NCBI GenBank assembly: GCA_977017645.1
Contig: OZ360223.1
Span: forward strand, 126,914,001-126,978,000
DNA: 64,000 nt
Direction of reading: 5' to 3'
From: Torpedo marmorata
Taxonomy: Eukaryota
The notes under the pieces are model-generated. The model was not told where the DNA came from, did no database searches, and saw only the letters and a list, made by a program, of their open reading frames with translations. Within the stretch, counting starts at the first letter, position 1, and each line of letters begins with the position of its first letter. This document shows positions 8,401-60,339 of the stretch, in pieces. A program made the translations under genes and the position numbers.

Positions 8401-8537
8401 TTGGCCACGGGCACAGTGAAGGCAAGCGCTTGAATGTGCCTAACTTCAGAGTATTTGTTCGAGACTGCCAGCAACACATCAATTTGATCAGGAATCGCTA
8501 CCCAAACCTGCCTCTTTTCTTTTTGGCAGAAGGCTTG
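8401..8537 (+). CDS. MGLL: Monoglyceride lipase-like paralog A, internal exon (137 nt) ending at the nucleophile elbow
   Basis: acag| ... |gtaagt; translates (V)GHGHSEGKRLNVPNFRVFVRDCQQHINLIRNRYPNLPLFFLAEGL, aligning with MGLL [22 protein letters not shown]...YPGLPVFLLGHSM. Confidence 0.93.
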
Positions 8538-9094
8538 GTAAGTGATCCATTGGAACATAACCCTAAAGAATATGATCTTCAAGATTAGTCATGTATTGCA
8601 AATATATAAGTCTATTTGTCTCAATTATACCTGGTACAGGGAGAAAGGTTCCTCTGTGAGCAGTTTAACAGATTATCTCTAACATTCATACAGTCAATTT
8701 AAGTAGAAGGGCAAGAGTTCAATTGTAGAGTGTAGAGTTAAATTTATTTGTCACAAATACCTAGTACAGTGAGAAGGGTTCTTCTGCGAGCAGACTAACA
8801 GATTATCTCCAACATTTATACAGCCATGTAAAGAGCACAATTTATAGAGCATAGGATTGCAATGAAAAGGAAGATCAATTAGCACCAAGCAAGGGCAGCA
8901 CGAGAGCACTGTTGTGGGGTTCATTCAGGAGCCTGACGGCTGCAGGGAAGAAACTGCCATTAAGTCTGTTGGTGCGCTAACAGTGCCACTCTTGTTCTTC
9001 TACTTTATATGGTGGTATGAATGTTAGAAATAACCTGTTGGACTGCTCACAGAAGAACCCTCCGCACTGTACCTGATAAAGTATCAAATAAATT

Positions 9095-9261
9095 TGCAGT
9101 GGAGGATAGTTTGGAAATGGGAAGTGAGATTTCCCATTGCAATCAGAGTGTAGGTGTTCTGTGAACTGGCCACTTCGTCTGAGCTTGGTCTCGCCAGTGT
9201 AGAGGTCACATCGGCTGCACTAAACCCGTGGTTGGAGGGGCTGCACCTGAAACCTTGCCTT
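9095..9261 (-). mobile_element. Penelope-like element fragment (GIY-YIG region)
   Basis: Minus strand gives degenerate CSRC.LYTGETKLRRSGQFTEH, typical of the PLE endonuclease. Confidence 0.6.
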
Positions 9262-9454
9262 ACTTCACTCTGCTTCCATCGGGAAAAAGGTACAGGAGCC
9301 TAAAGACGAGCACTCAACGGCACAAGGACAGCTTCTTCCCCGCTGCCATCAGATTCCTGAATAATCAATGAACCAAAGACACTGCCTTACTTTTCGTGCT
9401 CTATTGTTTATAATTTTTTTATAGTAATGTCGTAAGATGGTTAATATTAATGTT
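9262..9454 (+). mobile_element. Rex1/Babar LINE 3' end (continues at 13793-13893 after an L1 insertion)
   Basis: [35 protein letters not shown], nearly identical to the 3' end of the 29046-30547 copy; ttctga-repeat tail at ~13865-13893. Confidence 0.85.
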
Positions 9455-10992
9455 TTTTAAAAAATATTTTATTTAAAATTTTAAATCACACAATACATAA
9501 TATAAAAAGCAAAATTATCAAAATACATGTGATACATTTCCCCCCCTCCCTCCCCTCCCCAACCCTCCCAATCCCACTAATCTAATAAAAATATAAAATA
9601 AAATAAAAATAGAAAAGTAAAAATAGAAAAGGAGAAAAAGAAAGAAAAAGAGAAACAAAGTTAGGGGAATGCCAATTTCTAAACTACTTCTATTATGGAG
9701 GTCAGGTATGCCAGTAGACTCAATACCCAGAGATCCTCAAATTCTTAAACCAACAGCTCTCATATATGGGCTCCAAATTTTTAAGAAAAAATGATATTTA
9801 TTACGTAAATTATAAGTAATTTTTTCAAGTGGTATACATGAACGAAGTTCTGCATGCCATCTTTCTAATCCTAGATCTAAATCAGATTTCCAAGTAATAG
9901 CAATGCATTTCTTTGAAACAGCTAAAGCAATTCGCAAAAATTCTATTTGATACATGTTTAATTTCATCTTAATACTAAATTTTCTAATATCTCCGAACAA
10001 AAATATCATAGGATCCATTGGAAACGTAATTTTAAATACTTTATCTAAAAAACTTTTAACTTTCAACCAAAACTCATAAACTTTTGGACAAAACCATGTA
10101 GAATGTACAAAAGATCCTTCTTCTTTATTACATCCTAAAACATAAACCTGATAGTTTCGGATTAAATTTCTTTAATTTTTTAGGTGTTAAATATAATTGA
10201 TGAAAAAAATTATATTGAACTAATCTATATCTAACATTAATAATCTTTGTCATACTTAATTTAGATAATTCTTTCCAATGGTTTTCATCTATTCTTACAT
10301 TCAAATCCAATTCCCATTTTAATCTTGATTTATGCAATCCTACTTTAGGCATTTTCCTCTGAAACAATTTATACATTTGAGAAATAAATTTATTAACATC
10401 CCCATTAGTAACTAATAATTCTAATTCATCTTGTCTTGGCAAAATAAAAGCGTAACCTAATTTCTCAATCAAAAAAGCTCTAATTTGATAATAAGCAAAA
10501 AGTGTATTATCTAATATATTAAATTTATCTTTCATTCTTTGAAAAGTAATAAATTTTCCCGCTTCAAAACAATCATTACTTTTCTTAATTCCTTTTTGAA
10601 ACCAAATTTTAAATAATTGATTATTAACAGTAAATGGAATAAGTCCATTTTGATATAAAGGCATTCTTGAAGAAATCAATCCTTTTGCTCCTATTTCCTT
10701 ATCTGTCTTATACCATATTTCTAACAAATGTTTAAAAATAGGCGAATTTTTCTTTTTTGTTAATATTAATTTAGAATCCCATTTGTAAATACCGGTAATT
10801 TCTTCTTTGGAATCTTCTCCTATATTATTTAATTCTATTTTAATCCAAGCAGAAGATTTAGTTACCGTATATTTCGGCGTATAAGTCGACCCTTGAAACC
10901 CTCAAAAATGTCTCAAAAAACGGGGGTCGACTTATACGCCGGATATACTTTTGAGACCTTAAAATCAGCTCAAAATCGAGTTCACGCCGATC

Positions 10993-11140
10993 CGGCGTAT
11001 AAGTCGACCCCTGAAAACACGGTTCCGCGTATAAGTCGACCCCTGAAAACACGGTTCCGCGTATAAGTCGACCCCTGAAAACACGATTCCGCGTATAAGT
11101 CGACCCCTGAAAACATGATTCGGCGTATAAGTCGACCCCT
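10993..11140. repeat. Subterminal tandem array, 5 x 32 bp, containing the TIR core CGTATAAGTCGACC
   Basis: aagtcgac at 11001, 11033, 11065, 11097 and 11129. Confidence 0.9.
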
Positions 11141-11208
11141 GCAAAACCAAAAAAAAACCCGACTGCAACAAATTTTCATTGACATTTTAATTGAAAACAA
11201 CAAGACAT

Positions 11209-12558
11209 TTAGAACCCTTCAAAATCACTTTCGCTATCATCGTCTGAGGCAAAGATCTCGGCAAGCACATCCGGGGTCTCACTGTTTAAACAGTCATCGT
11301 ACGGGTCCCAGTCTGTATCTGATGAGGCGTCTTCAGCTTCGTCGTCAGTGTCCCACAATAAATCATCTTCCGTACCATCAATTGCACAAGAGATACCGCA
11401 CTTTTTAAACGATTTTATTATAGTCTCTACTTTCACTTTGTCCCATGCCTTGAGCACGAAGTCACACAGCACATCAAGCGATGCAGCACGCATTGCCCCG
11501 CCTTTTGTAAATGATTTTTCTGCACTCGACATCCATGTATTCCACTCTTCACGCACGTGGTCTTTGAATGGCTTGTTCAAGCAGACATCGAGAGGTTGCA
11601 ATATAGACGTCAAACCACCCGGGATAACCGCCATGTGAGTATTATGTTGTGCTAATGTACTTTTAGTCTTCTCAGTTAAGTGGCTACGAAACATATCCCA
11701 GACCAGCAAACTCCGTTCCTTGCGTAAACCGCCTGGCCGCCTGTTCCACACATTGTCTATCCATAGTTTTACACCATTTTCATCCATCCATCCTTTTTCA
11801 TGAAAATGTACAAAAATACCTGCAGGGAATTTTATTTTAGGTTTAAATTTGCGTTTGAAGATTACCATGGGTCTTAACTTTGTCCCGTCGGCCATGCACG
11901 ATAACACCACGGTAAACCTGGTCCTTTCATGTCCTGTACTCCTCATTTGAACAGTTTTCACACCTTTCCATTCCACTGTTCTATTGCCTATCATGTCAAA
12001 ATTCATGGGGGTTTCGTCCATGTTTCCAATATTTGCCAATGCAAACTTGTGTTTCTTCCGGTTACGTAAAATAAACTGGTGAAAACTTACAACTTTATGA
12101 TCAAGATCTTTTGGTAGTTTCTGAGCAATTTTAGTTTTTTGTCGTAATACCAGATTTTTCCTGTTCATAAAACGGTTGCACCAGCCTACTGAAGCTTCAA
12201 AATCATTACTGAGTTCTGGGTGCGACTTTGCCCAGTTCAGTGCAAATGTCCTTATTTTATTTCGGGTGACTATGTAGCAATCTTGCCTCTGTTCACGTAC
12301 CCATGCTGCTACATGATTTTCCAACTCTGGCCAACGAGTGATTCCTCTTCTCATGGAACATTGCCTTTTTGGTATTTTTCTTAAAGTCTCTTCTTTCTTC
12401 CTCCAATCTCTTACCAACTTCTCATATATACCAAATTTTCTTGCAGCAGCACAGTTGTTGGTTTTCTTTGCCATTTCTACTACTTTCAATTTAAAACTCG
12501 CCTCATACTTTCGTCGTTTCAATTGAGCCTTCAATGGAGCCTCCATGATAACAATCAC
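11209..12558 (-). CDS. pogo-type transposase (Brinker-like DBD, CENP-B HTH, DDE_1), 449 aa, uninterrupted
   Basis: RRKYEASFKLKVV, FEASVGWCNRFMNR, NMDETP, VWDMF and QPLDV with 35 residues between the 2nd and 3rd Asp; acidic tail. Confidence 0.95.
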   Translation of the reverse strand: MIVIMEAPLKAQLKRRKYEASFKLKVVEMAKKTNNCAAARKFGIYEKLVRDWRKKEETLRKIPKRQCSMRRGITRWPELENHVAAWVREQRQDCYIVTRNKIRTFALNWAKSHPELSNDFEASVGWCNRFMNRKNLVLRQKTKIAQKLPKDLDHKVVSFHQFILRNRKKHKFALANIGNMDETPMNFDMIGNRTVEWKGVKTVQMRSTGHERTRFTVVLSCMADGTKLRPMVIFKRKFKPKIKFPAGIFVHFHEKGWMDENGVKLWIDNVWNRRPGGLRKERSLLVWDMFRSHLTEKTKSTLAQHNTHMAVIPGGLTSILQPLDVCLNKPFKDHVREEWNTWMSSAEKSFTKGGAMRAASLDVLCDFVLKAWDKVKVETIIKSFKKCGISCAIDGTEDDLLWDTDDEAEDASSDTDWDPYDDCLNSETPDVLAEIFASDDDSESDFEGF

Positions 12559-12564
12559 CTCCAG

Positions 12565-12950
12565 CCAACGCCCAGCAGCTCAATGATCGCGATCGTTATG
12601 GGTCGACCTATACGCCGGTCACCGCCCAGCAGCTCAATGATCGCGATCGTTATGGGTCGATCTATACGCCAGTCAACGCCCAGCAGCTCAATGATCTCGA
12701 GCGGTGTGGGTCGATCTATACGTCATTCAACGGCCAGCAGCTCAATCATCGCGTTTTTTTAGGGGTCGACCTATACGCCGGTCAACGCCTAGCAGCTCAA
12801 TCATCGCGTTTTTTTAGGGGTCGACCTATACGCCGGTCAACGCCTAGCAGCTCAATCATTGCGTTTTTGTAGGGTCGACTTATACGCCGGTCAATGCGCA
12901 ACATCTCAGGCATCGAGATTTTTGGGGTCGACTTATACGCCGGATATACC
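12565..12950. repeat. Subterminal tandem array, 7 x 53-55 bp, containing GGTCGACYTATACGCC
   Basis: gtcga at 12602, 12656, 12710, 12765, 12820, 12874 and 12927. Confidence 0.88.
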
Positions 12951-13893
12951 ATAAAACCATTAAAATGAGGCTGAAAAAGGGGGGTCGACTTATCCGCCGG
13001 TCGACTTATACGCCGAAATATACGGTAAATCAAAAAATTCATTAACAAATTTTAATTGAGCTGCTTTATAATAATTTTGGAAATTAGGAAGTTGTAAACC
13101 ACCCATTTCATAATTCCAAGTGAATTTTTCCATACCTACTCTTGCTAGCTTTCCTTTCCATAAAAATTTTCTAATAATTGAATTTAAATCTTTAAAAAAT
13201 TTTTGAGGAATTCCATAAGGAATTGATTGAAAAAGATATTGAATTCTTGGAAAAACATTCATTTTAATACAGTTTACTCTTCCCATTAAAGTTATAGGTA
13301 AATCTTTCCAGTTTTCTAAATCTTTCTTTATTTTCACAAATAATGGTAAATAATTTAATTTATATAAATTAGTCAAATTTGTATCAACCTTTATTCCCAA
13401 ATATTTAATTCCTTCCTTAGCCCACTTAAATTGTGTAATTTCCTTACATCTACTATAATCCCCTTGTGATAATGCCATAATTTCACTTTTATCAGAATTA
13501 ATCTTATATCCAGATGTTTCCCCATATTCTCTCAATAACAAAGACAATTGTACTAAGGATGTAGTAGATTTCATCATATATATCAATACATCATCTGCAA
13601 ACAAGCTAATTTTATGTTCTTCCATTCCAACCTTAATACCAACTATTTTAGGATCTTTTCTAACTAATTCTGCCAAGGGTTCTATCGCCAAAATAAATAA
13701 TGCTGGTGACAAAGGACATCCTTGTCTAGTAGATCGAGTCAAAGGAAATTTTGAAGAAGTTTGTCCATTTGTAACTACCTTAGCTGATGGTTGTTAATAT
13801 GAATGTTAATTGCACTGTGATGCTGCCGCAAAACACCGAATTTCATGACTTGTTCATGACAATAAATTCTGATTCTGATTCTGCTTCTGATTC

Positions 13894-14232
13894 TTGTATG
13901 GGCTGTTGAGGCACCTGGATAGTGTTGAGGGAGCATGTGTAAGAACAGGTGTTGACAGATAGGGTCAGAGGTTAGGGAGGGATGAGAGGACCAGAGTGAT
14001 GCCTGCAGAAAGACAGTGGAAGGGGATGTGGAGAGGATGATGTGACATGTTGTGTCCAGCTGGTGGAAATGGGAGAGGATGATGTGCTGGACGCAGAAGC
14101 TGGTGGTGTGAAAGGTGAGGACAAGGGAAACTCTTTAGTTTGGAAGGATGGGGGTGAGAGCAGAGTCCGAGAAACAGAAGAAATGCGAGAGAGGACTCCA
14201 CCAACCACCGTAGAAGTGAAGCCACGTTTCCT
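13894..14232 (-). mobile_element. Penelope-like element fragment (continues at 27861-28150)
   Basis: PLE-like RT/EN linker sequence; joined to 27861 onward by the L1-A TSD; 27880-27990 minus reads degenerate TIAFSQFLYLHRIYSQEEAFRSRTSEMS. Confidence 0.65.
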
Positions 14233-15574
14233 TTTTAAAAATATTTTATTTAAAATTTTAAATCACACAATAATACATGTTTATAAAATACAAAATTATC
14301 AAAATACATGTGATATATTTTCACCCTCCCCTCCCTCCCTTCCCCCTCCCTAACCCACCCACCCCTACTACTCTAATAATATAGAAAGAAAAAAAAAGGA
14401 TAGAATTTGGAGAATGTCAATCTAAAAAAGAACAACTATACATTAATTTTATTGTGGAACACAGGTTCACCAGCCAGACCTGATATCGAGAGATCCTCAG
14501 ATCCTTAAACCCAGTCTTTATATATGGGCTCCATATTTTCAAAAAGAAATGATATTTGTTACATAAATTATGTAATTTTTTCAAGTGGTATACATGAACG
14601 AAGTTCTGCATGCCATCTTACTAACCCTAAATCTACATCAGATTTCCATGTAATAGCAATGCATTTCTTTGAAACAGCTAAAGCAATTCGCAGAAATTCT
14701 ATTTGATACATATTTAATCTCATTTTAATACTAATTCTTTTAATATCTCCAAACAAAAATGTCATGGGATTCATTGGGAGTGTAATTCTTAATACTTTGT
14801 CTCAAAACTTTTTAACTTTCAGCCAAAAAGCATGTATCCTTGGACAAAGCCACGTAGAATGTACAAAAGAGCCTTCCTCTCTATTACATCTAAAACATAA
14901 ATCTGATAGTCTTGAATTAAATTTCTTTAATTTCTTAGGCATTAAATATAATTGATGCAAAAAGTTATATTGCACTAACCTATATCTAACATTAATAATT
15001 TTCATCATACTTTGTTTACATATTTCTTTCCAATGTTCCTCATCTATTGTTACATTCAAATCTGATTCCCATTTTAATCTTGATATATGAATTTCTGGTT
15101 TAGGCATTTTTTTCTGTAACAATCTATACATTTGAGAAATAAATTTATTTATACCCCCATTAGTAACTAATGGCTCTAATTCATTTTGTCTTGGTAAAGT
15201 TAAACTATGACCCAACTTTTCTTTCTTTTTAAAATATTTTTATTGAGTTTCAATAATAAACATGTATACAGAGTAACAAGATTAAGAAAAACATTCAAAA
15301 AATCAGCTGGTATTCATACATATATATAAAAAAAACTAAGTAAATTGTCGGAACTAACATCTTAATATAGGTGAAAACTCTAGTTCCTTAATTATCTTTA
15401 AAAAATCACTTGAAAATAAAATAAAAAGAAAGAAAAAAAAAGACATAAAAAACAAACACTAATAACTAATCTATTCTAACCCCTCCCTCTAAGTAAGGTT
15501 ACCTTGATATTGTAAAAAAGGATATGGATCCTGTAGCGACCTCCAAGCATCGGACAGAGAGTCCCCGGGATATT

Positions 15575-18500
15575 CAGTTTTGTTAATTCTTCCAATCATG
15601 ATAGTATTCAATGAATGGCCCCCAGATCTTTAAAAATTGAAACTTTCTATCTTTAATATTATATCTAATTTTCTCCAAACTCAGAAAGGACATTACATCT
15701 AGTAACCACTGTCTATGTGTCGGTGATAACTCATCTTTCTATTTCAATAAAATTGCCCGTCTGGCAATCAACGTGGAAAAAGCTAAAACTTTTTCCTGTG
15801 ATGCAGACAAAGGTATGTTAAGTTCACGTGAAAAACCAAACAGAGCAATTATAGGACATGGTTCAATATTAATCTTAAAAATCAATGATAAAGATTTAAA
15901 ATATCCTTCCAAAATCTCTCCAAATTGGGGCATTCCCAAAACATATGTATCAGTGAAGCTTCAAAAATTTTACATCTCTCACACAATGGATCTATGTCAG
16001 AGTAAAAACGTGATAGTTTAAGTTTAGACATATGAATTCTATGCACCACTTTAAATTGTAATAAACAGCACAAAAAGATGAGGCGTTAATTAGATCAAGA
16101 GCATTGTACCAATCTTGATCTGAAAATGTAACATTCAAATCTCGTTCCCATTCATTCTTGATCCCCGTCATAGAAGCTACTCTGATTTCCAATAAATTAT
16201 TATGTATACATGATGTTAATCCATGTTGAAAAAAGAACCGTATATTAAAAAGTAAATCGAGAAAATTAGAACTTAAAATTCGAGGAAAATCTGAAATCTT
16301 AGACTGAACAAAATGTCTAATTTGTAAGTATCCAAAAAAAAAAGTCTGTTAGTAAGATTAAATTTATTGACCAATTGTTCGAAAGTGGCAAAACTATCTC
16401 GAATAAAAAGATCATTAAAACTATGAATTCCCAATCCATACCATTCCCTAAATCCATCACAGACGGCTGGAAAAGGTGATTATCTATAATAGGACTAGCC
16501 AGAGAAAAGCTATTAAATCCAAAAAAATTCTAAACTGTGCCCATATTCTCAACCTATATCTCAATACCGGATTATAAGTTATTTTAACAAATAAAAATGG
16601 TAAAAGGATCCTAAAATTGCTAACATAGATGTTTTTTTTGAAAACTTCAATTCCATTTCCACCCAGGATGGGTGATTCTGTAACTTATCAAAATGCAATA
16701 ACAAAAGCAAATTACGAATATTAATTGCCCAATAATAAAATCTAAAATCTAGAAGTGATAATCCTCCATTCCTTTTAATTTTTTGAAGATGGGATTTATT
16801 TATACGTGGATAAAGATATGAAGAAAGAATCGAATCCAATGAAATAAAAAAGGTTTTAGGAATAAAAATTGGTAAAGATTGGAAAAGATATAAAACTTAG
16901 GCAAAATATTAATTTTAATCAAATTAATATGGCCCATCATTGTAATTGATAAGGGTGACCAACCCGCTAATTGTAATTTAACCTTATTAACTAATACCCA
17001 AAAATTTTCTTTCAGTAAATTTTTATGGTTTTTTGTAATTGTTATTCCTAAATATTGGAATTGATTGTTCACTATTTTAAACGGAAAATGAGAATAACCA
17101 ATAAAAGGTCCTTTTAAGGGCAATAGTTCACTCTTTTGTAGGTTTAATTTATACCCTGAAAATTGACTAAATTGAGTAAATAGTGTTAATATATTTGGTA
17201 TAGAAACTTCAGGGTTTGAAATAAATAACAATAAATCGTCCACATAGAGAGATACTTTGTGTTCAATTCCGTTTCTAGTTATACCTTTAAATTCTCTACA
17301 ATGTCAAAGAGCAACAGCTAAAGGTTCTAATACTATATCAAAAAGCAAAGGACTTAACGGGCAACCTTGTCGTGTTCCTCTATTAAGCTGCAACATATCT
17401 GATTGTTGTAAATTAGATCAAACTGAGGCCATAGGACAAGAATATAGTAACTTAATCCATTTAATAAAATCAGAACCAAAATTAAATTTATCTAAAATAG
17501 CAAATAAATATTCCCACTCCACCCGATCAAATGCTTTTTCAGCATCTAGTGAAAGGACACATTCCGTCACCGGAGTAGAAGGTAAATATAAAATATTCAA
17601 CAATCTATTAACGTTATAATATGAATAACGATTTTTAATAAATCCAGTCTGATCTGAATTGATAATTAAAGGTAAAATATTTTCTAATCTATGTGCTAAT
17701 ACTTTAGACAAAATCTTCATATCCACATTAAGTAAAGAAATGGGTCTATAAGATGTGCATTCAGTTGATTCTTTACCCTTTTTAATAATTAAGGAAATAC
17801 TGGTCTCATTAAAAGATGTGGGAAGCTTACGCTCATTAAATGAGTCACCCAATACTACACTCAGATGAGGTGCAAGCTGTTTGGAGAAAGATTTATAAAA
17901 TTCCACAGGAAATCTGTCTGGCCCTGGAGATTTACCAGACTGTAGTGAGGAAATAGCGAGAGCTATATCCTCTTTAGAAAGAGGTTTCTCCAAGCTTGCA
18001 CGTTCATCCTGAGGTAGTACCGGAAGATTCAATCGATCCAAAAATTGTGACATCAAGTCATGATTATTATCAAATTCTGATTTATAGAGGTTAGAATAAA
18101 ATTCCTTAAAAGTCTCATTAATTTTGAGATAATCTGTTGTCATTTTTCCATCTTTCAACCTAATTTTATTTATTTGTTTTTTAGCAGAAATTCCTTTCAA
18201 TTGTCCAGCTAGTAACTTACTAGTTTTTTCTCCATGAATATAAAAGAGACTTCTACTTCTTAACAATTGTTGTTCAATGGGATAAGTAGATAGAAGATCA
18301 AATTTTGCTTTAAGCTCTACTCTTCTCTTATAAAAATCCGGATTTTTATTTTGAGAAAATTGAATGTCAATTTGTTTAATCTGGTTAATTAAATCAGATC
18401 TTTCCTTATTAGATTTCTTCTTAATATTAGCAGTATATGAAATAATTTGTCCTCTCAAATAAGCTTTCATAGTGTCCCAAACTATCAAATTAGACATCGT

Positions 18501-19330
18501 CGGAGAAGAGTTAGTAGCAAAAAATAACTGTATTTGCTTCTCCATAAAGTTTAAAAAATCTTGATTTTCAAGGAGAGTCGTATTAAATCTCCAATGTCTT
18601 TTTGTAAATGGGATATCATAGAAGTTCATAGATAAAATAACTGGAGCATGATCAGAAATCACTATTCCTTGATATTCGCATGATTTAGTCATAGAGATTA
18701 ATTGATTATCAATTAAAAAGTAATCTATCCTCATATATGAACGATGCACATTGGACAAAAAAGAATATTCTCTACTAGTGGGATTTAAAAAAACGCCAAA
18801 CATCTGTAATACCATAATTCGACATAAAAGAATGTAATAAAACTGCAGATTTCGAGAGAGTTGCTCATTTTAACGAAGAACGGTCTAAAACCTTATTCAA
18901 ACAGCAATTAAAATCACCTCCCAAAATCAATGAATACTGATTTAAATCAGGTAAAAAGGAAAAAAACTTTTCAAAAAATGCTGGATCATCGATGTTTGGA
19001 GCATAAACGTTCACCAATACCACCAGTTTATTATATAATTTACCTATTAAAATAATATCACGACCTTGTTTGTCCAATATACTATGATGTAATACAAATG
19101 GAATATTTTGATTAATTAATATCGAAACTCCTCTGATTTTTGCTTCAGAACAGGAATGGAAAAATTGACCCTTCCATCTCAACATTAATCTATCTTTATC
19201 GGAATTTTTAATGTGGGTTTCTTGAAAAAAGGCCACATCTGCCTTTAATTGTCTTAAATGTGCCATTATTCTACGCCATTTAATAGGGCCATTCAAACCT
19301 TTAATATTCCATGATACTATGTTGATTGGA
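15575..19330 (-). pseudogene. L1-B ORF2 (APE endonuclease-RT), frameshifted
   Basis: ORFs 18865-19296 (FFQETH, GGDFN), 17418-18815 (SDHAP, YRPISLLN, DAEKAFDRV), 16800-17243 and downstream fragments. Confidence 0.9.
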
Positions 19331-21128
19331 ACTATTCCAACTAAATAATTATTCCACAGTTACTAACCCGAGAGCTCCGCCAACCCCGGAGACCACCATT
19401 TTGGATCCATAAAGACATACATCAAAACCTTTTGGTAACCTTGTCCTACCCACTAAACTAATACACCCCCACTCCTGGCCCACCCCAAACTGAAGATCTC
19501 CCAACATGAGGGAGATCCGCTCACTAACTAAGATAAACCCCATAATACTTGGTTGTGATGGATAAGCTCAAGCCAACAAACTTAAAATAGTTAAAAGAAA
19601 TCCTAGTAAATTGTAAAAATCAAGGGTTTTTTAACACTTTCCCTCCCCGGAGAGAAGAAAGAAAAATAAAGGGGGGGGAGGGAATAAAAAAAGGGGAAAA
19701 AAAAGAAAAAAAAGGGGAAAAAAAGAAAAAAAAAAGGTGGGGGGATCCCAACTCCATACAAAAACTTATAAAAAGAACACCATAACAGCTAATCAATCCA
19801 ATACATGTATAGGAGTAATAGTTCCTTTCTAAAGTTTATATATGAACTTAAAGAAATAATCATTCCCTACAATCCAGTAACCAATCATTAATTCATTATA
19901 GTCTTTGTTAATATCAAACTAGCTTACTAATATATCCCCACACATAAAAGTCCAATACATATATAGTAAAGGATTTATAATACATTATATATATATATGC
20001 ATAAAAAATTAAGGGGAACCCCTCCCCAAGAAAAAGCACTTGATAATAACACTCATCTGCAAAAGACAGGAGTAAACCAAACTTAAAATTCCCCAGTTCT
20101 CTGTTATTATCACAGATCAATAAAAACAATTAATATTTAGTTCAAAACTTGTTTAAAAAAAACAACCCCCCAACCCCCAATCCACCTGAACATACAGAAG
20201 GAAAAAAAACCCTGTTTAAAAATAAAAGCTAAAAGCCCTCAGACACACCAAAATAGCAGTAGTCGGATATGGGAAAACATACTATACTGTGCCTGCAGCT
20301 TTCCCCCTGCAGATATCGACTCCCTTAAAGCTCATGCTGGTGGGACAAGAAGCTGACCCCAGAATAACAAGCACATATTCAGTGGGAGTGATGCCTAGGA
20401 AACCGACACCTCTTTGATGGAGAACAGACATTTCAACACAGGCTGGAGATCTGTCTAGGCAGCTTGATAAACTGCTCAGTAACCTTCCCTGTGGAGTCTA
20501 TCACACATGTATCATTGGTAATAGGTCGCTTCAATATTCCAGAAGTTATAACCTTATATATAAAAAAAAACCTACAAACCAATCCAAATTCACACAAAAC
20601 TCTTTCCAAATATCAGCCCACAGACCAGCACACAGAAAAAAAAGGAAAACAGAGATGGGGGAGGGAAAATAGTTTCCCAGGCAAAAACCTGCGACACCAC
20701 TTTCCCTCTTATTCTTTATAGTCTGCTCAGTTTTTAGAACAACCATGACACCATCATTATTCCCTCATAAGAATTTTAGCAGTCATAATAATTAAAATAC
20801 CTCCCCAACCACCATTTTCTATTCCCTTGAGAACAAAGAGATCTATATCAATATCCAAGCACCATTTTACATTGTTGTGTCTAAAATTTAAAATAAACCA
20901 AAACAAAACTTTTTAAAAAAATAAACCCAAGGAAATCAACACTAAAAGAAAATGAAAATCAATATCCCTTCTCTCTTAAAATTATGATTATAAAAATCAA
21001 AATTCAATTAGTTACCCTTTAGCCCCACAGTGGTACATCCCAGTAGTAAGATCATAATTCAAACAGAAAGAAATCCCTTAGACATCCCCCTGTTACAGAA
21101 TGGTATCACTCCCTTAGAAGCTAAAAAG

Positions 21129-21974
21129 TTAACCCATTCCAAGTACCAACTGGTCAGAGGAACCAGGCAAAATCTCAGAAAGTGCATTTCTTGCTTGCTC
21201 CTCGGAAATAAAAAATCTCTTCTGCCCATTTTTCAAAACAATTCGAAGACGCGCTGGATATTGCATAAATGGCCTCAGACCTTCATTATAGAAAATCTGC
21301 ATAACACCATGAAACTTTCTTCTCATCGCCAATACTTCTGGACATAAATCTTCTACCAATCTAATAGATTGGCCTTGATAATTCAAGTCCTTCTTTCGAC
21401 GAGCCACTTGAATGATTTGTTCCTTTTGATGATAATAATGACAGCAAACGATCACCACTCTTGGACGTTCTTCCGATGTCTTTTTGAAAGAAGGAATCCG
21501 ATATGCCCGATCCACTAGGAGCTCTCCAGTTATTGCTTCTTTCCCAACTAAATCGGTAAGTAGCTGAGCAAAGACTGTTATAGGAGAGAGCCCCTTCTCG
21601 ATGCCTTCTTTAACTCCCAAGATTCGAATATTCTGCCGCCTGCTACAGCCCTCCAGGTTGACCAAACGAGACGACAGATTGTTGTATTTTAAATCGAGAT
21701 TATTCATCTTATTTTCCAGCGAGTCTGTCGTAAGATGTACTAGTTGTTCAACTTCTTGTACACGTTTTTGCATCTGTGTTATTGCCTCTATTGATTGATC
21801 CAACTTTGCCTCCAACTTAGGCACAGCTGTCATTAATTTCTCGTATAACTCCTTATTCTCTGATTTAATCAGATTAGTAACCGTTACCAGAGAACAGGTA
21901 ATCTCCTCTTCGGATTCAGGGGCAGTTGTTGTTTCAGTAGCCACTTTTGTCTTCTTTGCCGCTTTCCGAGACAT
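21129..21974 (-). CDS. L1-B ORF1p (coiled coil + RRM + CTD), 281 aa, open
   Basis: LEGCSRRQNIRILGVKEG, VDRAYR, RPRVVIV and YPARLRI motifs of Transposase_22-type ORF1. Confidence 0.9.
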   Translation of the reverse strand: MSRKAAKKTKVATETTTAPESEEEITCSLVTVTNLIKSENKELYEKLMTAVPKLEAKLDQSIEAITQMQKRVQEVEQLVHLTTDSLENKMNNLDLKYNNLSSRLVNLEGCSRRQNIRILGVKEGIEKGLSPITVFAQLLTDLVGKEAITGELLVDRAYRIPSFKKTSEERPRVVIVCCHYYHQKEQIIQVARRKKDLNYQGQSIRLVEDLCPEVLAMRRKFHGVMQIFYNEGLRPFMQYPARLRIVLKNGQKRFFISEEQARNALSEILPGSSDQLVLGMG

Positions 21975-22249
21975 TTTTCTGATTATTTATCAATAATGTT
22001 ATTGAAAAAGACTCCCACCACAGTTAGGTTAGTGAATATCACAAAAGAAGTTAGGTCCGGAGGTGGAAAGTGTTAAATGTGGCAGAGCCGATGACTAACA
22101 CGGCTTAATCCATGTAGTCACCCAACCGGAAGTCATGACCCAACTTTTCAACTAAAAATGTTCTTATTTGATAATAAGCAAAAAGTGTATTATTTAATAC
22201 ATTAAACTTCTCTTTCATTCTTTGAAAAGTAATAAATTTACTAGCTTCA

Positions 22250-23004
22250 ACTCAAGTCAAGTCACCTTTATTTGTCGTTCATTACCATATACACAGTAAG
22301 ACAAGATAGCGTTTCTCCAGGACGATGGGCAGATGTACATAAATATCATAATACAATAGAAAAACTATAACATGCTAATACACATATATATCGAGGAATT
22401 GAGGAGCCTGATGGCTTGGGGGAAAAAACTGTTGCACAGTCTGGACGTGCGAGCCCAAGTGCTTCGGTACCTCCTTCCAGATGGCAAAGAGGAAAACAGT
22501 TTACCAAAGGGGTGTGATAAGTCCTTTACAATGTTTTTAGCCTTCCTCATGCATCGTGTGTTGTAAATGTCTGTCATGGTGGGGAGAGAGACTCAAATAA
22601 TTTTCTCCGCTGCCCTCACTATCCTCTGCAGGGTCTTTCGGTCCGAGGTGGTACAGTTTCCAAACCAAGCGGTGATGCAATTGCTCAGAATACTCTCAAT
22701 GCATCTCCTGTAGAATGTAGTAAGGATAGGGGGTGGGAGATGAACTTTCCTCAGTCTTCACAGGAAGTAAAGACGCTGCTGGGCTTTCTTGACTATGGAA
22801 CTGGTGTTTAGGGACCAGCTGAGACTCTCCGCCAAGTGCACTCCAAGAAACTTGGTACTCTTTACGACCTCAACGGTAGAGCCGTCCATGGTCAAAGGAG
22901 AATGATCCCCCCGGGCCCTTCTGAAGTCGACAACCAACTCTTTTGTTTTGTTCACGTTCAGCTGCAGTTTGTTGTTTCCGCACCATTCCATTAGCGACTG
23001 CACC
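22250..23004 (-). mobile_element. Rex1/Babar LINE, 5'-truncated, inserted in L1-A ORF2
   Basis: WCGNNKLQLNVNKTKELVVDFRR, KKAQQRLYFL; tail aataaaggtgacttgacttgag. Confidence 0.88.
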
Positions 23005-26000
23005 TCAACAATCATTTAATTTTTTAATCCATTTTTGAAACCAAATTTTAAACAATTGATTATCAATAGTAAATGGGATAAGTTTATTTTGATATAAAGG
23101 CATTTTACGAGAAATTACCCCTTTCCCTCCTATCTCCCTATCCACTTTATTCCATATTTCTAACAAATGTTTTAAAATAGGGGAATTTTTACCTCCCCTT
23201 AATAATAATTTAGAATTCCATTTATAAATAACTTCTTCTTCCGAATCCTCTCCTATATTATTTAATTCTATTCGAATCCAAGCAGAAGATTTTTCTAAAT
23301 CAAACATTTAATTAATAAATTTTAATTGAGCTGCCTTATAATAATTTTGAAAATTGGGAAGTTGTAAACCTCCAATTTCATAATTCCAAGTTAATTTCTC
23401 CATACCTACTCTGGCCGACTTTCCCTTCCACAAGAATTTCCTAATAATTAAATTTAAATCCTTAAAGAATTTTTGAGGAATTTCAAAAGGAATTGATTGA
23501 AAAAGATACTGAATTCTTGGAAAAACATTCATTTTGATACAATTTACCCTTCCTATTAAAGTTATAGGTAAATCTTTCCAACTCTCTAGATCTTTTTTAA
23601 TATTAGTAAATAATGGTAAATAATTTAATTTATATAAATTACCTAATTTTGTATCTATTTTTATTCCCAAATATTTAATTCTATCATTTGACCATTAAAT
23701 CGTGTAATTTCTTTACATTTATTATAATCTCCTTGTGTCAATGCCATAATTTCACTTTTATCAGAATTAATCTTATAACCAGATATTTCCCCATATTCTC
23801 TCAATAAAACAGTCAATTGTGTTAAAGAATTAATAGGTTTTGTCATGTAAATCAATACATCATCTGCAAATAAACTAATTTTATGTTCTTCTTTTCCAAC
23901 TTTTTAATATCTACAATCTTAATATCTTGTCTAATTAATTCTGCTAAAGGTTCTATTGCTAAAATAAAAAATGCTGGCGACAAAGTGCATCCTTGTCTAG
24001 TTGACCTAGTCAACAAAAACTTTGAAGAAATTTGTCCATTTGTCACCACTCTGGCAGAGGGTTCTTTATATATAGTTTTAATCCAATTAATAAATAATTC
24101 CACTCAAATCAATCAAAAGCCTTTTTGGCATCTAATGTTAATACTAGTGCTAATTCCTCTTTCTTTTGTGCCACATTTATTAAACTAATCAATCTGGCAA
24201 CATTATCCATTGAATATCTATTCTTAATAAAACCCGCTTGATCTGCATGAATTAAATCTGGTAAACATTTTGCCACTCTATTTGCTAAAATTTTTGCCAT
24301 TATCTTATAATCCACATTTAACAATGAAATTGGTCTATATGATTCTGTTTTCAACAAATCTCTATCTTTTTTAGGTATAACAGTTATTATTGCATTTGAA
24401 AATGTTTCCAGTAGAGAATGAGATTCCATTATTTCCTTTAACACCTCCATATATGGAGGTATCAATAAATCCTTAAATTCCTTATAAAATTCTGATGGGA
24501 AACCATCCTCCTCCGGAAACTTTCCACTTGTTAAAGAACTAAGAGCATCATTAACTTCTCTCATCGTAAACAATGCTTCTAAAAATTTTATACTTTGAGT
24601 ATTTAATCTAGGTAACTTAATTTTAGATAAAAATTCATTAATTTTAGAATCATCTTTATCGGTTTGAGATTTATATAAATTTAAATAGAATTCTCTAAAT
24701 GAATCATTTATTTCTTGAGGTTTATATGTTATTTTCTTTGAATTCTTTTTTATAGCACTTATAGTTCTGGAAATTTGTTCTTTCTTTAGTTGCCACGCTA
24801 ACACTTTATGTGCTCTTTCTCCCAGTTCATAATATCTTTGCTTAGTTCTTTCAATTAATTTTTCCATTTTATATGTTTGTAACATATTATAATGCAATTT
24901 CTTTTCAATTAAATTTTTCCTCTTTTCTTCTGTTCCTTTTTCTTGCAAATCCTTCTCCAAAAACTCAATCTTCCTCTCCAGATTATCCAATTCCTGAATA
25001 TATTCCTTCTTAACCTTTGCTGAATAATTTATTATTTGACCTCTTAAATAAGCCTTTAAAGCTTCCCAAATAATATTTTATTATTAATCGAATTAGAATT
25101 AATCTGTAAAAATTCTTGAATTTCTCTTCTTATATAGTTACAAAAATCCATTCTTTTCAATAAAGAAGAATTAAATCTCCATCTATATATGATTTTTTCT
25201 TTTTCTGGAATTATACATGACATTAAAAGAGGTGAATGATCAGAAATTATTCTAGCTTTATATTGCACTTGAATCACCCTATCTTCTAATTGTGATGACA
25301 ATAAAAACATGTCTATTCTAGAATAAAAATCATGTCTAAAAGAATAAAAAGAATAGTCTTTTTCTTTTGGATTCAACTTCCTCCAAATATCTATTAAATT
25401 CAAATCTTTCATCAAAGTAAGAATTCTTTTAGCAGTTTTAGTTCTGATAATTGATTTCGATGTTTATCCATTGTTGGATCTAAACAACAATTAAAATCTC
25501 CACCAATTAAAATATTGTTCTTTTCTTCTGACAAGTGCATAAAAGAATCTTGAATTAATTGTTCATCTTCCATATTTGGCACATATATATCCATAAGTGT
25601 CCACATTTCTGAATATATTTGATAATTTATTAAAACAAATCTTCCTGCAACATCTATAACCATAGATTGTATTTTAAAAGGTAACTTTTTATTAATTAAT
25701 ATAGCAACTCCTTTTGCTTTAGAATTAAATGAAGACGCTACCACTTGACCAACCCATTCTCTTTTCAACTTCTGATGTTCTATTTCTGTCAAATGTGTCT
25801 CTTGTTAAAAAGCTATATCAACTTTTAACTTTTTAATATATGCTAAAGTTTTCTTCCTTTTTAATCGGATTATTTAGCCCATTTATATTGATACTTACTA
25901 CATTTTTTGATTTACTATCTGCCATTTCTAATATTTAATAAATCTCTCTCTATCCGACCGACCGGTTCCCCCTTCCACATTTGTAACATATTTGACATCT

Positions 26001-28231
26001 CCCTAGAAAAGAAAGAAAAAGAGGAAATTTTAAAAAAATCCCACTATATTTAAAAAACAAAAAAAGAGAAAAAAAAAGAATATAATATATATATTAAAAA
26101 AATAATAATACTGGTATATTTATATCTGTACTACCACCCTCTATTGCTCGGGAAGTGGCCCTCACCACTAAGGTGACGTGTGGTTAGGTACGAAGGCAAA
26201 AAGTCCACCCCCCCCAACAGATTTTACATAACATTTGTTATCGTTTCTTCATCCCAATCCAGCTTCTTCCAGATCTCTGTTAACTTGATCATCGTCTATT
26301 TTGACCACATCTTCTTGTCCTGAAGTTATTTGAAATTTCTTTCTTGGAGGAAACAAATACCGAGTCGGTTCCATAATAACTTGAGGTTGCCCCATCAATT
26401 CTTGATCTTTCTTTAAATTCAGAAGTGAATTCGCATACTTCAAAGCTTCTTGATGATCAGTAAAAAAGAATGACTGATTCTCTCCAGACTCTACTTTCAA
26501 TGTCGCAGGATATCTAAATGAAAATTTATATCCTTTACTCCAAAAAATTGCTTTAGCTGAATTAAATTCTTTTCGTTTTTTAATTATTGCTGCGCTTAGA
26601 TCAGCATAAAAAAATACTCTATTTTTATTGATCGTCAATGGACTCAGGTTCTTTCTAGCATTTTGAACAGCTAATTTCAGTATCTTCTCTTTATCCTGGT
26701 AACGAAGAGATCTAATTAACACTGAACGTGGCTTTTGTCCAGGATATGGTTTCCTTCTGCTATCTCTATGAGCTCTATCTAATTCAAGTCCATTTGGAAA
26801 ATATTCACTACCCAAAGTTTTTGGAATTCAATTTTGAAAGAATTCAGTTGAATTTATCCCTTCATAATCTTCGGGCAATCCCACAATTTTAACATGATTT
26901 CTCTGATTATGGTTCTCCAATACATCTATTTTTTGTAAAAGTTCACTTCTTTGTTGCTCCCAACCTGTAAATGAGTCTTCCACTTTATCCACTCTATCTT
27001 TACAGTCCACCATTTCTTCATATTGTTCTTTAACATACTTTTCAATTTTCTGGACTTTCGATATTAATTTATCCACAGTATATGTATATTTTTTCATATC
27101 ATGTTTAATGCCTTTCATTTTTTCCTCAATTCCATTAAATCTATATTCCATGCGTTGATTCATTATTGACACTTGTTTTGTTAATTTATCCATAGCTTGA
27201 ATAAAAGTCACTGATATTTCTTGTTTACCTTGGTATTTAAGCTTCTTCTCCTTCACAATTCTTTATCCTCTCCCTCCATCTCTTCTGTTTCTCCCTCCAC
27301 TTCTTCATATATTTCTTTCTCTCTCCTTTTATCCTCTGATTCCGTTGATGATGACAATTCTTGTCCAGCATCATGTTGAAATGATTGAAGGACTCTTCTT
27401 TTGCCGTCAACCTTAGTTGACAGTTCCCGTTCTCTTCCATGCATGCGCGCCGTTTCGCGCATGCGCGGTCGTTCACTCTCCCGTTGTAGTTCCTTACTCT
27501 TCCTTCGAGTACCAGCGCCATCTTCCCCAGCTCCCCGGGAAGGTGGCGCTGGTGCTACAATTACATTGGCCGTCCTTGTCCGTATCGTCCTAGGAGGGAG
27601 AGAAACTTGATCCCGCAGCTCCGTCACTAAGGTAGGCCGATCTTCTTCTTGAATTAGACTTTCTTTAAACATTATTTTCTTTGACTTTTGTTCCTTCCCT
27701 TTTCTTATAGACATTCTTCAATAGTTAACAAACGATCTTAACTTCTTTAACAACCAAATAAAGTTTTTTTTATACAGTTTTTGATTAATTCTGTAGGGAG
27801 AGGTGTATTCCCACGTCTCCAACCTACGCCATCATGCCACGCCCCCCCCTCCTCCCCCGAGAAGCCATGTTTCCTGAAAAACAAGGACATTTCAGATGTC
27901 CTGGAACGGAAGGCCTCCTCTTGAGAGTAGATGCGGTGAAGATAGAGAAACTGGGAGAAGGCAATGGTGTCCTTGCAAGAGATAGGATGGGGAGAGGTGT
28001 AGTCATGGTAGTGGGAGTCAATGGCTTAATAGCAAATGTAAATGGTTTTTTTTTCTCCTGATAGGTCCATAAAAAGGAGAGAATCACTGGAAATTGTTCA
28101 TTGTGAATTAGAGAACAGATGGAAGTTAGTAGCGAAGTTGATCAAACTGAGTGAGTTTACGTTATCACTGCAGCCTCCATGTGAATTGCTATGATATGTG
28201 TAAGGCATTAAGGAGGGAAGCTACTTGGATG

Positions 28232-28845
28232 AGTGTTGAACTATGATCCAAATCCAGAGCTCCCTGAAAGTGGCCACGCAAGTAGATAGGGTGGTAAAGA
28301 AGGCGTAGGGTATACTTGTCTTCATTGGACAGGTCAGTGAATATAAGAGTAAGGGAGTCATGTTGCATCTGATTAAAACTCTGGTTAGGTTACTGTTTAC
28401 TTTCAGTACTATGTGTAATTCTGGTCAGGTATGAGTTATATGGAGAGGTTGGACAAACTTGGGCTGTTTTCTCTGGAGCATCGGAAGCTGAGGGAAGACC
28501 TGATAGAGGTTATAAAATTATGAGAGGCATTGATAGAGCAGATATTACCTTTTTTTCCCTGGGTAATAATGTCACATTCTAGAGGACATGTATTTAGGGT
28601 GAGATGGAATGTTTAAAGGAGATGTCCAGGGGAAGGTTTTCCCACAGAGAGTGGTGGATGCCTGGAACAGGCTGCCAGGGGCAGTGGTGGAAGCAGATAC
28701 TATAATAGTGTTGAAGAGGTTTCCAGATTGACACATGGATATGCTGGGAATGGAGGGTTATGAATCATGTCTGACAGAAAGAGGTTTAGTTTAATTTGGC
28801 ATCATGGTCAACACAGACATGGCGGGATGAAGGGCCTGTACTATT
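28232..28845 (+). mobile_element. CR1-clade LINE 3' fragment
   Basis: Degenerate LRGDLIEVYKIMRG and cacagagagtggtggatgcctggaac motifs, CR1 tail. Confidence 0.8.
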
Positions 28846-30835
28846 CTACCCTCTTCCACCCTCCATCCCTTACTACATTCTACAGGGGATGTATTGAGAG
28901 TATTCTGAGCAATTGCATCACCGCTTGGTTTGGAAACTGTACCATCTCAGACTGTAAGACCCTGCAGAGGATAGCGGGGTCAGCGGAGAAAATTATTGGT
29001 GTCTCTCTTCCCACCATGACGGACATCTACAACACACGATGCATGAAGAAGAAGAAGAATCAGAATTTATTGTCATGAACAAGTCATGAAATTCGGTGCT
29101 TTGCGGCAGCATCATAGTGCAATTAACATTCATATTAACCATTCTAACGACATTACTATATAAAATTATAAACAATAGTGCACTAGTGTCTTTGGTTCAT
29201 TGATTGTTCAGGAATCTGATGGCAGCGGGGAAGAAGCTGACCTTGTGCCGTTGAGTGCTCGTCTTTAGGCTCCTGTACCTTTTCCCCGATGGAAGCAGCG
29301 TGAAGAGGGCATGGCCTGGGTGGTGGGGGTCCTTGAGGATAGAGGCTGCTTTATTAAGACATCGCCTCATGTAGATGTCCTCGATGGAGTGAAGTTTGGT
29401 GCCCGTGATGTCACAAGCCGAGGTAACAACCTTCTGGAGTTTGCACTTGTCCTGGGAGTTGGCACCACCATACCAGGCAGTGATGCAACCAGCTAGAATG
29501 CTCTCCACGGTACACCTGTAGAAGTTCACAAGAGTCTTTGGCGACATACCGAATCTCCGCAATCGCCTCACAAAGTATAGCCGCTGACGAGCCTTCTTTG
29601 TGATTGCATCCACGTGGATGCTCCAGGACAGATCCTCGGAGATGTTGACACCCAGGAATTTGAAGTTCTTGACCCTCTCCACGACTGAGCCCTCGATGAG
29701 GACTGGGTTGTGTTCCCCTGACTTCCTCCTGAAGTCCACAATCATCTCCTTGGTTTTACTGACGTTGAGCTCGAGGTTGTTGTCATTACACCATTCAATG
29801 AGCTGATCTATCTCCCTCCTGTACGCTTCCTCATTGCCGTTTGTGATTCTGCCGACAACTGTGGTGTCATCGGCAAACTTGTATATGGCATTGGAATTGT
29901 GCCTGGCCTCACAGTCATGAGTGTATAGCGAGTAGAGCAGTGGGCTAAGCACACATCCTTGGGGTGCGCCTGTGTTGATAATCAGTGAGGAGGAGACGCT
30001 GTTTCCAATTCGTACTGACTGTGGTCTTCCGATGAGAAAGTCAAGGATCCAGTTGCAGAGTGGGGTACAGAGGCCTAGAGTTTGTAGCTTCTTGACCAGC
30101 ACTGAGGGAATAATGGTATTGAAGGCCGAGCTGTAGTCTATGAAGAGCAGCCGTATGTATGAATTGCTGTTTTCGAGGTGATCCAGAGCTGAGTGGAGAG
30201 CCAGCGATATTGCATCTGCTGTGGAGCGATTGTGACGATAGGCGAATTGCAGTGGGTCCAGGTCTTTGCTTAGGTATGTGTTAATTCTGGTCATGACCAG
30301 CCTCTCAAAACATTTCATCACCGTAGAAGTTAGTGCTACTGGGCGATAGTCGTTGAGGCAGCTCACACTACTCTTCTTGGGCACCGGGATGATTGATGCC
30401 CTTTTGAAGCAGGTGGGAACCTCTGACTGCCGCAATGAGAGGTTGAAAATGTCCGTGAACACTCCGGCTAGTTGGTTGGCGCAGATTTTCAATACCCTGC
30501 CAGGTACGCCGTCAGGGCCTGACGCCTTGCGAGGGTTCACCCTCTTGACAAATAACATTGTGAAGGACTTCTCACACCCCTCTTTTAAACTTTTCTCCCT
30601 TTTGCAATCTGGAAGGAGGTACCGAAGTATTCGGGCTCACACGTCCAGATTGTGCAACAGTTTTTTCCCCCAAGCCATCAGACTCCTCAATTTTTAGATA
30701 TATATGTATATTAACATGTTATAGTTTTTTTATTGTATTATGCTATTTATGTAAATTTGCTCATGGTCCTGGAGAAAAGCTATCTGTCTTTACTGTGTAT
30801 ATGGTAATGAACGACAAATAAAGGTGACTTGACTT
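28846..30835 (+). mobile_element. Rex1/Babar LINE 3' fragment split by an antisense Rex1 copy (28846-29045 and 30548-30835)
   Basis: FYRGCIESILSNCITAWFG...TRCMKK joins [19 protein letters not shown]; tail aataaaggtgacttgactt. Confidence 0.85.
29046..30547 (-). mobile_element. Rex1/Babar LINE, 5'-truncated, RT frame still open (453-aa ORF 29197-30558)
   Basis: [36 protein letters not shown] and KFADD; ttctga/ttc tail. Confidence 0.93.
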
Positions 30836-31023
30836 GGTTGCTGGTTTCTCATACTCCCACCAGTAGGAGCTTCACCTGGCAATGTGCCAATTTTTCCCAA
30901 GCCTGAGATTATCCCTGCAGGGAGCAGAAATCGAGGCTGGACTTTCCAGAATGTGTACCACTGAGCTGTGATATGATAGGCTCCACCTAATCGTGTTAAT
31001 GTCGTTCTGTCTGCTCATTTCAG

Positions 31024-31134
31024 GGAGGAGCCATTGCAATCTATGTGGGGAAAGAGAGGCCAAATGAGATTGCTGGGATGATTTTTATGGCACCTTTGGT
31101 CTTAGTGAATCCTGAATCAGCAACCCCAACAAAG
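31024..31134 (+). CDS. MGLL: MGLL-like paralog A, internal exon (111 nt)
   Basis: tttcag| ... |gtaaaa; [37 protein letters not shown] matches MGLL [37 protein letters not shown]. Confidence 0.95.
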
Positions 31135-31934: not shown

Positions 31935-32024
31935 TTGTGCATTGCCAGACTGATGTATCATCTGATGCCAAATTTATCCTTGGGATACATGGACCCCCGG
32001 TGGTTGTCAAGATCACAAAGAGAG
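31935..32024 (+). CDS. MGLL: MGLL-like paralog A, internal exon (90 nt, lid region)
   Basis: ctag| ... |gtgtgt; LCIARLMYHLMPNLSLGYMDPRWLSRSQRE matches MGLL [30 protein letters not shown]; phase 0 on both sides. Confidence 0.92.
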
Positions 32025-33747: not shown

Positions 33748-33963
33748 GTACTAAACTTTGTGAATGACCCTCTCAACTACCTTGGACCTTTTAGGGTGAA
33801 GTTTGTTGTTCAGATGATGGAGGCGGTGACCAATCTGGAAAATATATTCCCTACCATCACCTGGCCAGTGCTCATCTTACATGGAAACGCAGATAAACTC
33901 TGCGACATCAAGGGTTCCTTCCTCATGTATAACAAGTTGGGCAACTCAGACAAGACATTGAAG
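33748..33963 (+). CDS. MGLL: MGLL-like paralog A, internal exon (216 nt) with catalytic Asp
   Basis: ttcag| ... |gtgatt; VLNFVNDPL...PVLILHGNADKLCDIKGS...SDKTLK. Confidence 0.95.
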
Positions 33964-47877: not shown

Positions 47878-47994
47878 GTCTTCAAGGATGCTTTCCATCA
47901 ACTGCACAAGGAGACACCGAGAGTGGTTACTGAAGTCAACTTACTGATCAGAACATGGCTCAATGACAGGACACCAAGACAAGAAACAGACTAA
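47878..47994 (+). CDS. MGLL: MGLL-like paralog A, terminal coding exon with catalytic His
   Basis: ttccag|VFKDAFHQLHKETPRVVTEVNLLIRTWLNDRTPRQETD*; matches MGLL IYEGAYHVLHKELPEV. Confidence 0.94.
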   Translation, partial: VFKDAFHQLHKETPRVVTEVNLLIRTWLNDRTPRQETD

Positions 47995-59786: not shown

Positions 59787-59897
59787 TTATTTCGGCGGAG
59801 GCAACCTGTCATTCAACCACATTTCAATCAAGGCAAACACTTCCTTTACGACATCTGGCACCTCCTTGTGAAGCTGGTGAAAACATTCCTCGAAGAC
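59787..59897 (-). CDS. MGLL: MGLL-like paralog B, terminal coding exon with catalytic His
   Basis: Minus strand ttcag|VFEECFHQLHKEVPDVVKEVFALIEMWLNDRLPPPK*. Confidence 0.94.
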   Translation of the reverse strand, partial: VFEECFHQLHKEVPDVVKEVFALIEMWLNDRLPPPK

Positions 59898-60339
59898 CTG
59901 AACAGAATTCAGAAGAGACCACAGTGATCAAACAGAAATTCTACAACAGGAACACTGCAATAGTTCAGAAACAGCTCACTGATACCCCGCAGGCAATTAA
60001 TTATCATTCCTGAGATGGAAATACAAAATAGGGGTTCAGGTGAAGGGGTGTTTATGAAGGCAAGGAAAAGGCAATAGTTCAGGTTAAAGAAAGTTTCTTC
60101 CCCACAGTCATCAGGCTCGTGAAAGAACCCCACAACAGTGCTCTAATGCTGCCCCCGCCTGGTAAAAATTGATCATGAAATTGATCGATAATTGTGTCCT
60201 TGTTCTTCTACTTTATACTGGTGTAGGTGTGTCAGACCTATTAGACTGCTCACAGAAGAACCCTTTGCACTGTACTGGATATAATTTGATAAATAAACGT
60301 GAAATTCAAACTAACGACAGAGATAACGATAACTGAAGT

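Follow-up and report, generated by a model that had tools for sequence, protein, structure and literature searches.

Alpha/beta-hydrolases that lack the catalytic Ser are already known, ABHD5 being one example. MAGL is the main enzyme degrading the endocannabinoid 2-AG and a drug target, and in the accessible sections of the paper describing this the S122A mutant appears only as an inactive control (PMC13129045). According to the accessible part of a study of human MGL, S122A had no 2-AG activity, took the open form by NMR and was fully bound by a reversible inhibitor at 1:1, and the D239A/N and H269A mutants shifted towards a closed lid; the simulations in the same study, by contrast, favour closed S122A (PMC7595040). 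Two further precedents, both taken from partial texts, are ABHD5, which arose by duplication with loss of the catalytic Ser and activates PNPLA lipases (bioRxiv 10.1101/2025.05.06.652485), and ABHD17, whose N-terminal Cys cluster is palmitoylated and targets membranes (PMC4755737). Neither a natural Ser-less MGLL nor MGLL paralogs or an MGLL expansion in elasmobranchs was found described in the open-access PMC and bioRxiv literature.

We analysed a window of 64,000 nucleotides from the electric ray Torpedo marmorata (contig OZ360223.1, forward-strand positions 126,914,001 to 126,978,000), which carries five of the seven coding exons of such a gene, here called g2. In our reading g2 belongs to a pseudoenzyme branch of a well-studied lipase that is real, conserved and apparently undescribed, and g2 is likely a conserved non-cutting protein.

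Gene structure and the nucleophile site

g2 is a Ser-less MGLL paralog on the + strand, with seven in-frame exons and a 933 nt open frame encoding 310 aa. The first two exons precede the window (contig ~126899305-126899459 and ~126910159-126910265), and both were intact; broken upstream exons had been named as a possible refutation in an earlier, sequence-only reading of the window. Exon 3 (8401..8537, ending ...LFFLAEGL) matches human MGLL 79-121 and Pfam Hydrolase_4, and it closes at 8523-8537 with TTG GCA GAA GGC TTG, followed by the donor gtaagt (to 8543). Beyond a 22.5 kb GT-AG intron (8538..31023), the acceptor tttcag leads into GGA GGA GCC at the start of exon 4 (31024..31134; GGAIAIYV...). 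Exon 5 (31935..32024) belongs to the cap region, exon 6 (33748..33963) contains ADKLCD from 33889 with the catalytic Asp codon (human Asp239) at 33892-33894, and the last coding exon (47878..47994) contains FHQLH from 47893 with the catalytic His codon (human His269) at 47896-47898, followed by the stop. The five in-window exons have AG/GT ends and a stop-free joined translation, all 12 splice ends of the gene are intact, and no stops, frameshifts or broken splice sites of a pseudogene were seen in g2. The sequence-only reading had reported this exon end with GGC at 8532-8534, the in-phase splice to 31024, five stop-free GT-AG exons and the kept Asp and His, and the letters and joined translation agreed with it on each point; a sawfish RefSeq model has the same join.

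Because the motif exon matches human MGLL 79-121, directly before Ser122, the GGC (Gly) codon at 8532..8534 (+) is the nucleophile codon, as sequence and alignment both indicate. The resulting A-E-G-L-G departs from the G/A-x-S-x-G motif of active MAGL. Asp239, His269, Glu53, His54, Tyr58 and the HGAGEH oxyanion loop were all kept in the alignment to human MGLL, and the changes near the glycerol pocket were H121E, Y194F and a His at position 57, a residue that is Arg in most orthologs. Homology, Pfam Hydrolase_4 and a tree position within the elasmobranch MGLLs place g2 in the MGLL gene family. The earlier statement that four consecutive residues differ from MGLL was correct against human and bony-fish MGLL and failed against elasmobranchs: elasmobranchs usually have Ala at -2, and the Ser-keeping neighbour likewise carries Leu at +1, so only the His-to-Glu and Ser-to-Gly changes are particular to g2.

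A sequence error, a mis-spliced model or a Ser restored in RNA would also produce this picture, and we consider such an artefact very improbable. In its favour, the read contigs described below span exons 4-6, not the GGC codon or the 8537-31024 junction. However, the Ser codons of the three paralogs are TCC, TCT and TCC (not the AGC that had been expected at 8532), and GGC is two base changes away, so a single misread base cannot explain the Gly, which is present in sawfish too. We found neither an exon nor an alternative splice that would restore the motif: tblastn detected no second motif exon in the window, the 22.5 kb intron included, and G-x-S-x-G resulted from 0/5 in-frame, stop-free donor/acceptor pairs near the junction. 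Neither A-to-I nor C-to-U editing can turn GGC into a Ser codon. The route from TCN to GGC plausibly passed through Ala.

Searching the genome itself placed four MGLL-like genes within ~330 kb of one contig, and a search for the motif returned just four paralogous copies and one local inverted duplicate. Of these, g1 (+) keeps the Ser in SHSLGG at the same locus, and g3 (59787..62807, -), convergent to g2 and with its last two exons at 62807-62592 and 59897-59787, keeps it in AHSMGG; their proteins are 93% and 95% identical, respectively, to those of Narcine bancroftii. The fourth gene, g4 (+; motif exon region at contig 127134769-127135108), has decayed: it carries a deletion of 22 bases as well as other frameshifts. 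In its FSM motif and its HD.G loop it is similar to the SFSMGG subfamily of stingrays, and the inverted duplicate of its motif exon lies ~150 bases upstream. At human position 93, g3 has a Ser, whereas a conserved Phe occupies this site in bony MGLLs and in the Narcine ortholog. The window also contains long open frames at 2982-6131 (+; 231 and 818 aa) and 35159-38817 (-; 388 and 390 aa), which by their motifs we take to be LTR-retrotransposon gag/pol, and a 456-aa open frame within an intron at 11212-12579 (-), presumably transposase-like by its motifs. Intronic fragments at 9465-10791, 12993-13793, 17421-18869, 21132-21986, 24112-25077, 29200-30636 and 44142-45467 appear to us LINE-like.

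Serine loss in sharks and rays

We surveyed the nucleophile site in 121 proteins (the best 120 of 407 matches plus the query). Nine were Ser-less, namely two Pristis isoforms (Gly), six shark proteins (Ala) and one Pristiophorus protein (Cys), and the Ser was kept in 70/70 rows outside cartilaginous fishes (66 named, 4 unnamed). Among the matches listed, the closest database protein was a Pristis pectinata 'monoglyceride lipase-like' protein with AQGLGG (Gly), whose model lacks the His exon and reads into the preceding intron; g2's own protein was absent from the matches listed in the protein-database searches, and the motif exon alone, used as a homolog query, gave no match (8 candidates). 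With cluster members added, the Ser-to-Ala change extends over three shark orders and nine species (Cetorhinus, Carcharodon, Mustelus, two Scyliorhinus, Stegostoma, two Chiloscyllium and Hemiscyllium), all in the subfamily of g2. The sequence-only reading had asked whether the Ser loss is common to other rays and sharks; it is, with Gly in the sawfish ortholog, although the shark Ala subfamily had gone unnoticed there. Ser-less relatives are rare elsewhere, since 144 of 149 wider cluster representatives had Ser, the others being 3 Ala, 1 Gly and 1 Asp (probably misaligned). The distant Ala/Gly MGLL-like representatives include one from the crinoid Anneissia japonica. At least six MGLL paralogs occur in Pristiophorus japonicus, among them the Cys-bearing one, whose nucleophile motif reads SLCMGG; according to the accessible part of the source, the human S122C mutant loses efficiency 18,000-fold (PMC7595040). 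The retrieved database records all label the Ser-less proteins 'monoglyceride lipase-like', an annotation that hides the Ser loss.

Quick trees, with SH-aLRT support only and with most bony-fish rows and short isoforms left out, placed g2 and the Pristis protein as sisters (97-99) and grouped this pair with the Ser-keeping ray g1 genes (95-99). On the sequence evidence, the Ser loss in this lineage predates the split of electric ray and sawfish. The Ala sharks grouped with the Ser-keeping Heterodontus, and the Ser-keeping Pristiophorus and Heptranchias proteins fell near the subfamily base with weaker support. Topology tests were run with the motif masked, on a Ser-less group defined by the trait and tested after the first tree. 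A single clade of all Ser-less proteins was rejected (p-AU 0.0003, 0.003 and 0.0004; 0.016 without exon 3; 0.032 on exon 3 alone), which favours two independent losses, in rays and in sharks. A clade of the Ser-less proteins plus Heterodontus was not rejected on all columns (0.136) or on exon 3 (0.24) and was rejected without exon 3 (0.037); one old loss followed by reversal or gene conversion is a possible reading of the sequences. No residue was unique to both Ser-less groups, and the three states they share occur in Ser-keeping relatives too.

Splicing and constraint

One public run matched g2; its RNA nature is a guess and not on record. Its read contigs mapped to window 30950-34050, that is, to exons 4-6. 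The first contig matched exon 4 with 0 differences and continued into exon 5 over a GT..AG joint, and the second contained the exon 5-exon 6 joint at GT..AG with 2 differences; both extended past the mapped exons, and the overhangs of 163 and 169 letters are compatible in length with exons 3 and 7. In this run, g2 is thus spliced across three exons, and the two joints, with the run's RNA nature guessed, bear against the lack of expression that had been named as a possible refutation. The coding differences between run and window were G31967A (Met to Ile) and A33793C (silent).

Codon models were fitted to the genome's own paralogs, so the g2 branch includes time before the Ser loss. On that branch dN/dS was 0.575 (255 codons, three paralogs; p=0.12 vs 1), 0.51 (284 codons, three paralogs; p=0.057) and, with g4 added as a fourth paralog, 0.49 (p=0.024), giving a range of 0.49-0.58 compared with 0.41-0.57 for the Ser-keeping sister g1. 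The dN/dS check that had been proposed thus came out below 1 with weak significance (p=0.02-0.12), and a value of 1 was rejected with four paralogs but not with three. A comparison of sites conserved in 40 bony MGLLs with the remainder was the stronger line of evidence. Differences between g2 and sawfish fell at 12/104 conserved sites and 48/154 other sites (p=0.00027), and the five pairs of Ala sharks compared were alike in this (p=0.0002-0.03). Along the g2 branch dS is ~0.26, of which 59% falls after the sawfish split by tree branch lengths, corresponding to 0.15 changes per site. When neutral decay was simulated over 0.15 changes per site, 40/4000 copies stayed stop-free, and 0/4000 escaped stops, frameshifts and splice hits together, given an assumed indel rate of 0.05 per substitution. 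These results support constraint on the g2 protein, as far as sequence comparison can speak to it.

These data also bear on the reading that in rays selection on a redundant duplicate has relaxed and the gene is slowly vanishing, with true maintenance only in the shark Ala lineage. The dN/dS of ~0.5 with its weak significance is in keeping with this, as are the sawfish model without its last exon, the already broken neighbour g4 and the greater number of active-site changes in g2 than in sharks. No g2-type copy was seen for Narcine, Mobula, Hypanus, Hemitrygon, Rhinoraja or Amblyraja among the annotated proteins in the best 120 of 407 matches and their cluster members; g2 may therefore be dispensable or unannotated in these six other ray genera. 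Against slow decay, the frame and 12 splice ends are intact despite a loss older than the electric ray/sawfish split, the g2-sawfish differences avoid conserved sites, the g2 dN/dS matches that of g1, and spliced contigs are present. We regard decay as unlikely. The earlier proposal of a maintained non-catalytic paralog instead gains support from the intact upstream exons, the spliced contigs, the sawfish Ser loss and the constraint.

Proposed function and known systems

The structure prediction that had been suggested as a check was available for the Cetorhinus ortholog, not for g2 itself, and it gave the alpha/beta-hydrolase fold with the MAGL cap (pLDDT 86.8; TM 0.91 and rmsd 2.0 to human MAGL 3jw8), from an alignment of mostly active MGLLs. 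The shark ortholog aligns gap-free to human MGLL over 289 residues. At its N-terminus (MPTGGCWCCGVRHPRR), g2 has a Cys cluster and a basic patch. At least three N-terminal Cys occur in 7/10 full Ser-less rows, and at least two occur in only 2/40 bony MGLLs. The cluster is common to most of the g2 subfamily, Ser-keeping paralogs included, and is thus not part of the Ser loss; from its sequence, it is likely a membrane anchor new to the elasmobranch lineage. In two of the three elasmobranch MGLL subfamilies, most members gained an N-terminal Cys cluster and basic residues.

With its Ser replaced by Gly, g2 likely cannot hydrolyse esters, and by analogy with human S122A it likely lacks monoacylglycerol hydrolysis; binding of monoacylglycerol or 2-AG is plausible on the same analogy. 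As human S122A is inactive yet folded and ligand-binding, g2 is best read as a non-catalytic lipid binder, and we lean, at somewhat better than even confidence, towards a predicted membrane-tethered, non-hydrolysing binder of monoacylglycerol-type lipids beside active paralogs. The Ser-to-Gly change would have removed catalysis, a presumably intact pocket would still take ligand, as the 1:1 inhibitor complex of human S122A suggests, and S-acylation of the N-terminal Cys cluster, together with the basic patch, would anchor the protein at the membrane, where it may buffer or pass on monoacylglycerols, 2-AG or ether monoglycerides. A binder needs an open lid too, and since Asp and His keep the lid of human MGL open, this may be why g2 has retained them. 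Speaking against the binder are the changes near the glycerol pocket, the weak dN/dS signal, the lack of g2-type copies among the proteins listed for the six other ray genera, the sawfish model without its His exon and the presence of the Cys cluster in Ser-keeping paralogs.

The kept residues could also mean that g2 is still an enzyme, with water or some other substrate activated by the His-Asp pair alone, without Ser, or that it performs a non-hydrolytic reaction; we judge this improbable. Dyad-based chemistry does occur in some alpha/beta-hydrolase-fold enzymes, and the Asp is kept in 10/10 Ser-less rows and the His in 9/9 with the last exon, along with the oxyanion loop. However, lid gating already accounts for the kept Asp and His, and human S122A performs no 2-AG hydrolysis in the accessible part of the source (PMC7595040). 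The Glu beside the site was considered as a substitute nucleophile and discarded, because this residue varies (Glu in g2, Gln in sawfish, His in sharks).

Protein-protein regulation by a maintained pseudoenzyme, as an ABHD5-like co-activator or as a decoy, either for an active lipase or for an MGLL paralog, with lipid binding secondary, is a further alternative, which we hold to be rather doubtful. The ABHD5 precedent of a Ser-less duplicate activating PNPLA lipases (bioRxiv 10.1101/2025.05.06.652485, partial text) speaks for it, as does the presence of a Ser-keeping paralog alongside in 7/9 Ala-bearing shark species, in sawfish and in the Torpedo genome. However, no new residue is restricted to the Ser-less groups, and the tandem position is a trace of duplication, not of interaction.

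Returning to the lipid binder, a tentative extension, to which we give a low probability, is that the same membrane-anchored MGLL subfamily twice became a dead monoglyceride receptor or carrier, independently in sharks and in rays, that either keeps 2-AG away from the active lipases or carries 1-O-alkylglycerols. The latter are the ether monoglycerides of elasmobranch lipid stores and have no ester to cut, so that the Ser would be superfluous in a carrier; the papers listed from open-access PMC and bioRxiv gave no support for this ether-lipid idea. S122A is the usual dead control for MAGL, and that at least 11 elasmobranch species have kept a natural S122A/G form implies a useful non-catalytic job for the MAGL scaffold. 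The Ser-less elasmobranch proteins offer a route to that job, as monoglyceride or ether-lipid binder or as lipase regulator, and repeated loss within one subfamily would make a clean test case for pseudoenzyme origin.

Neuroligins and NDRG proteins likewise have the alpha/beta-hydrolase fold, carry Gly or Ala in place of the nucleophile and play non-enzymatic roles, but they belong to other families, are far older and serve in adhesion or as scaffolds. ABHD17 depalmitoylases share the N-terminal Cys cluster with g2, whereas they are active enzymes of another family and palmitoylation of g2 is predicted (PMC4755737, partial text). Like g2, ABHD5/CGI-58 is an alpha/beta-hydrolase duplicate that lost the catalytic Ser while the gene was kept; unlike g2, it derives from ABHD4 and has known PNPLA/PLIN partners, and the nearest relative of g2 in PDB, Pfam and tree is MGLL. 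Vertebrate MGLL/MAGL (PDB 3jw8, 3hju) shares the Hydrolase_4 family, Asp239, His269 and the HGAGEH loop with g2, and its fold and gap-free alignment with the shark ortholog, but it has Ser122 where the elasmobranch forms have Gly (rays) or Ala (sharks), and these forms add the N-terminal Cys cluster, with g2 being one of several tandem paralogs. The replacement made in the human MAGL S122A laboratory mutant (PMC7595040) is natural in the shark members and kept over three orders, whereas the ray form changes His121 as well.
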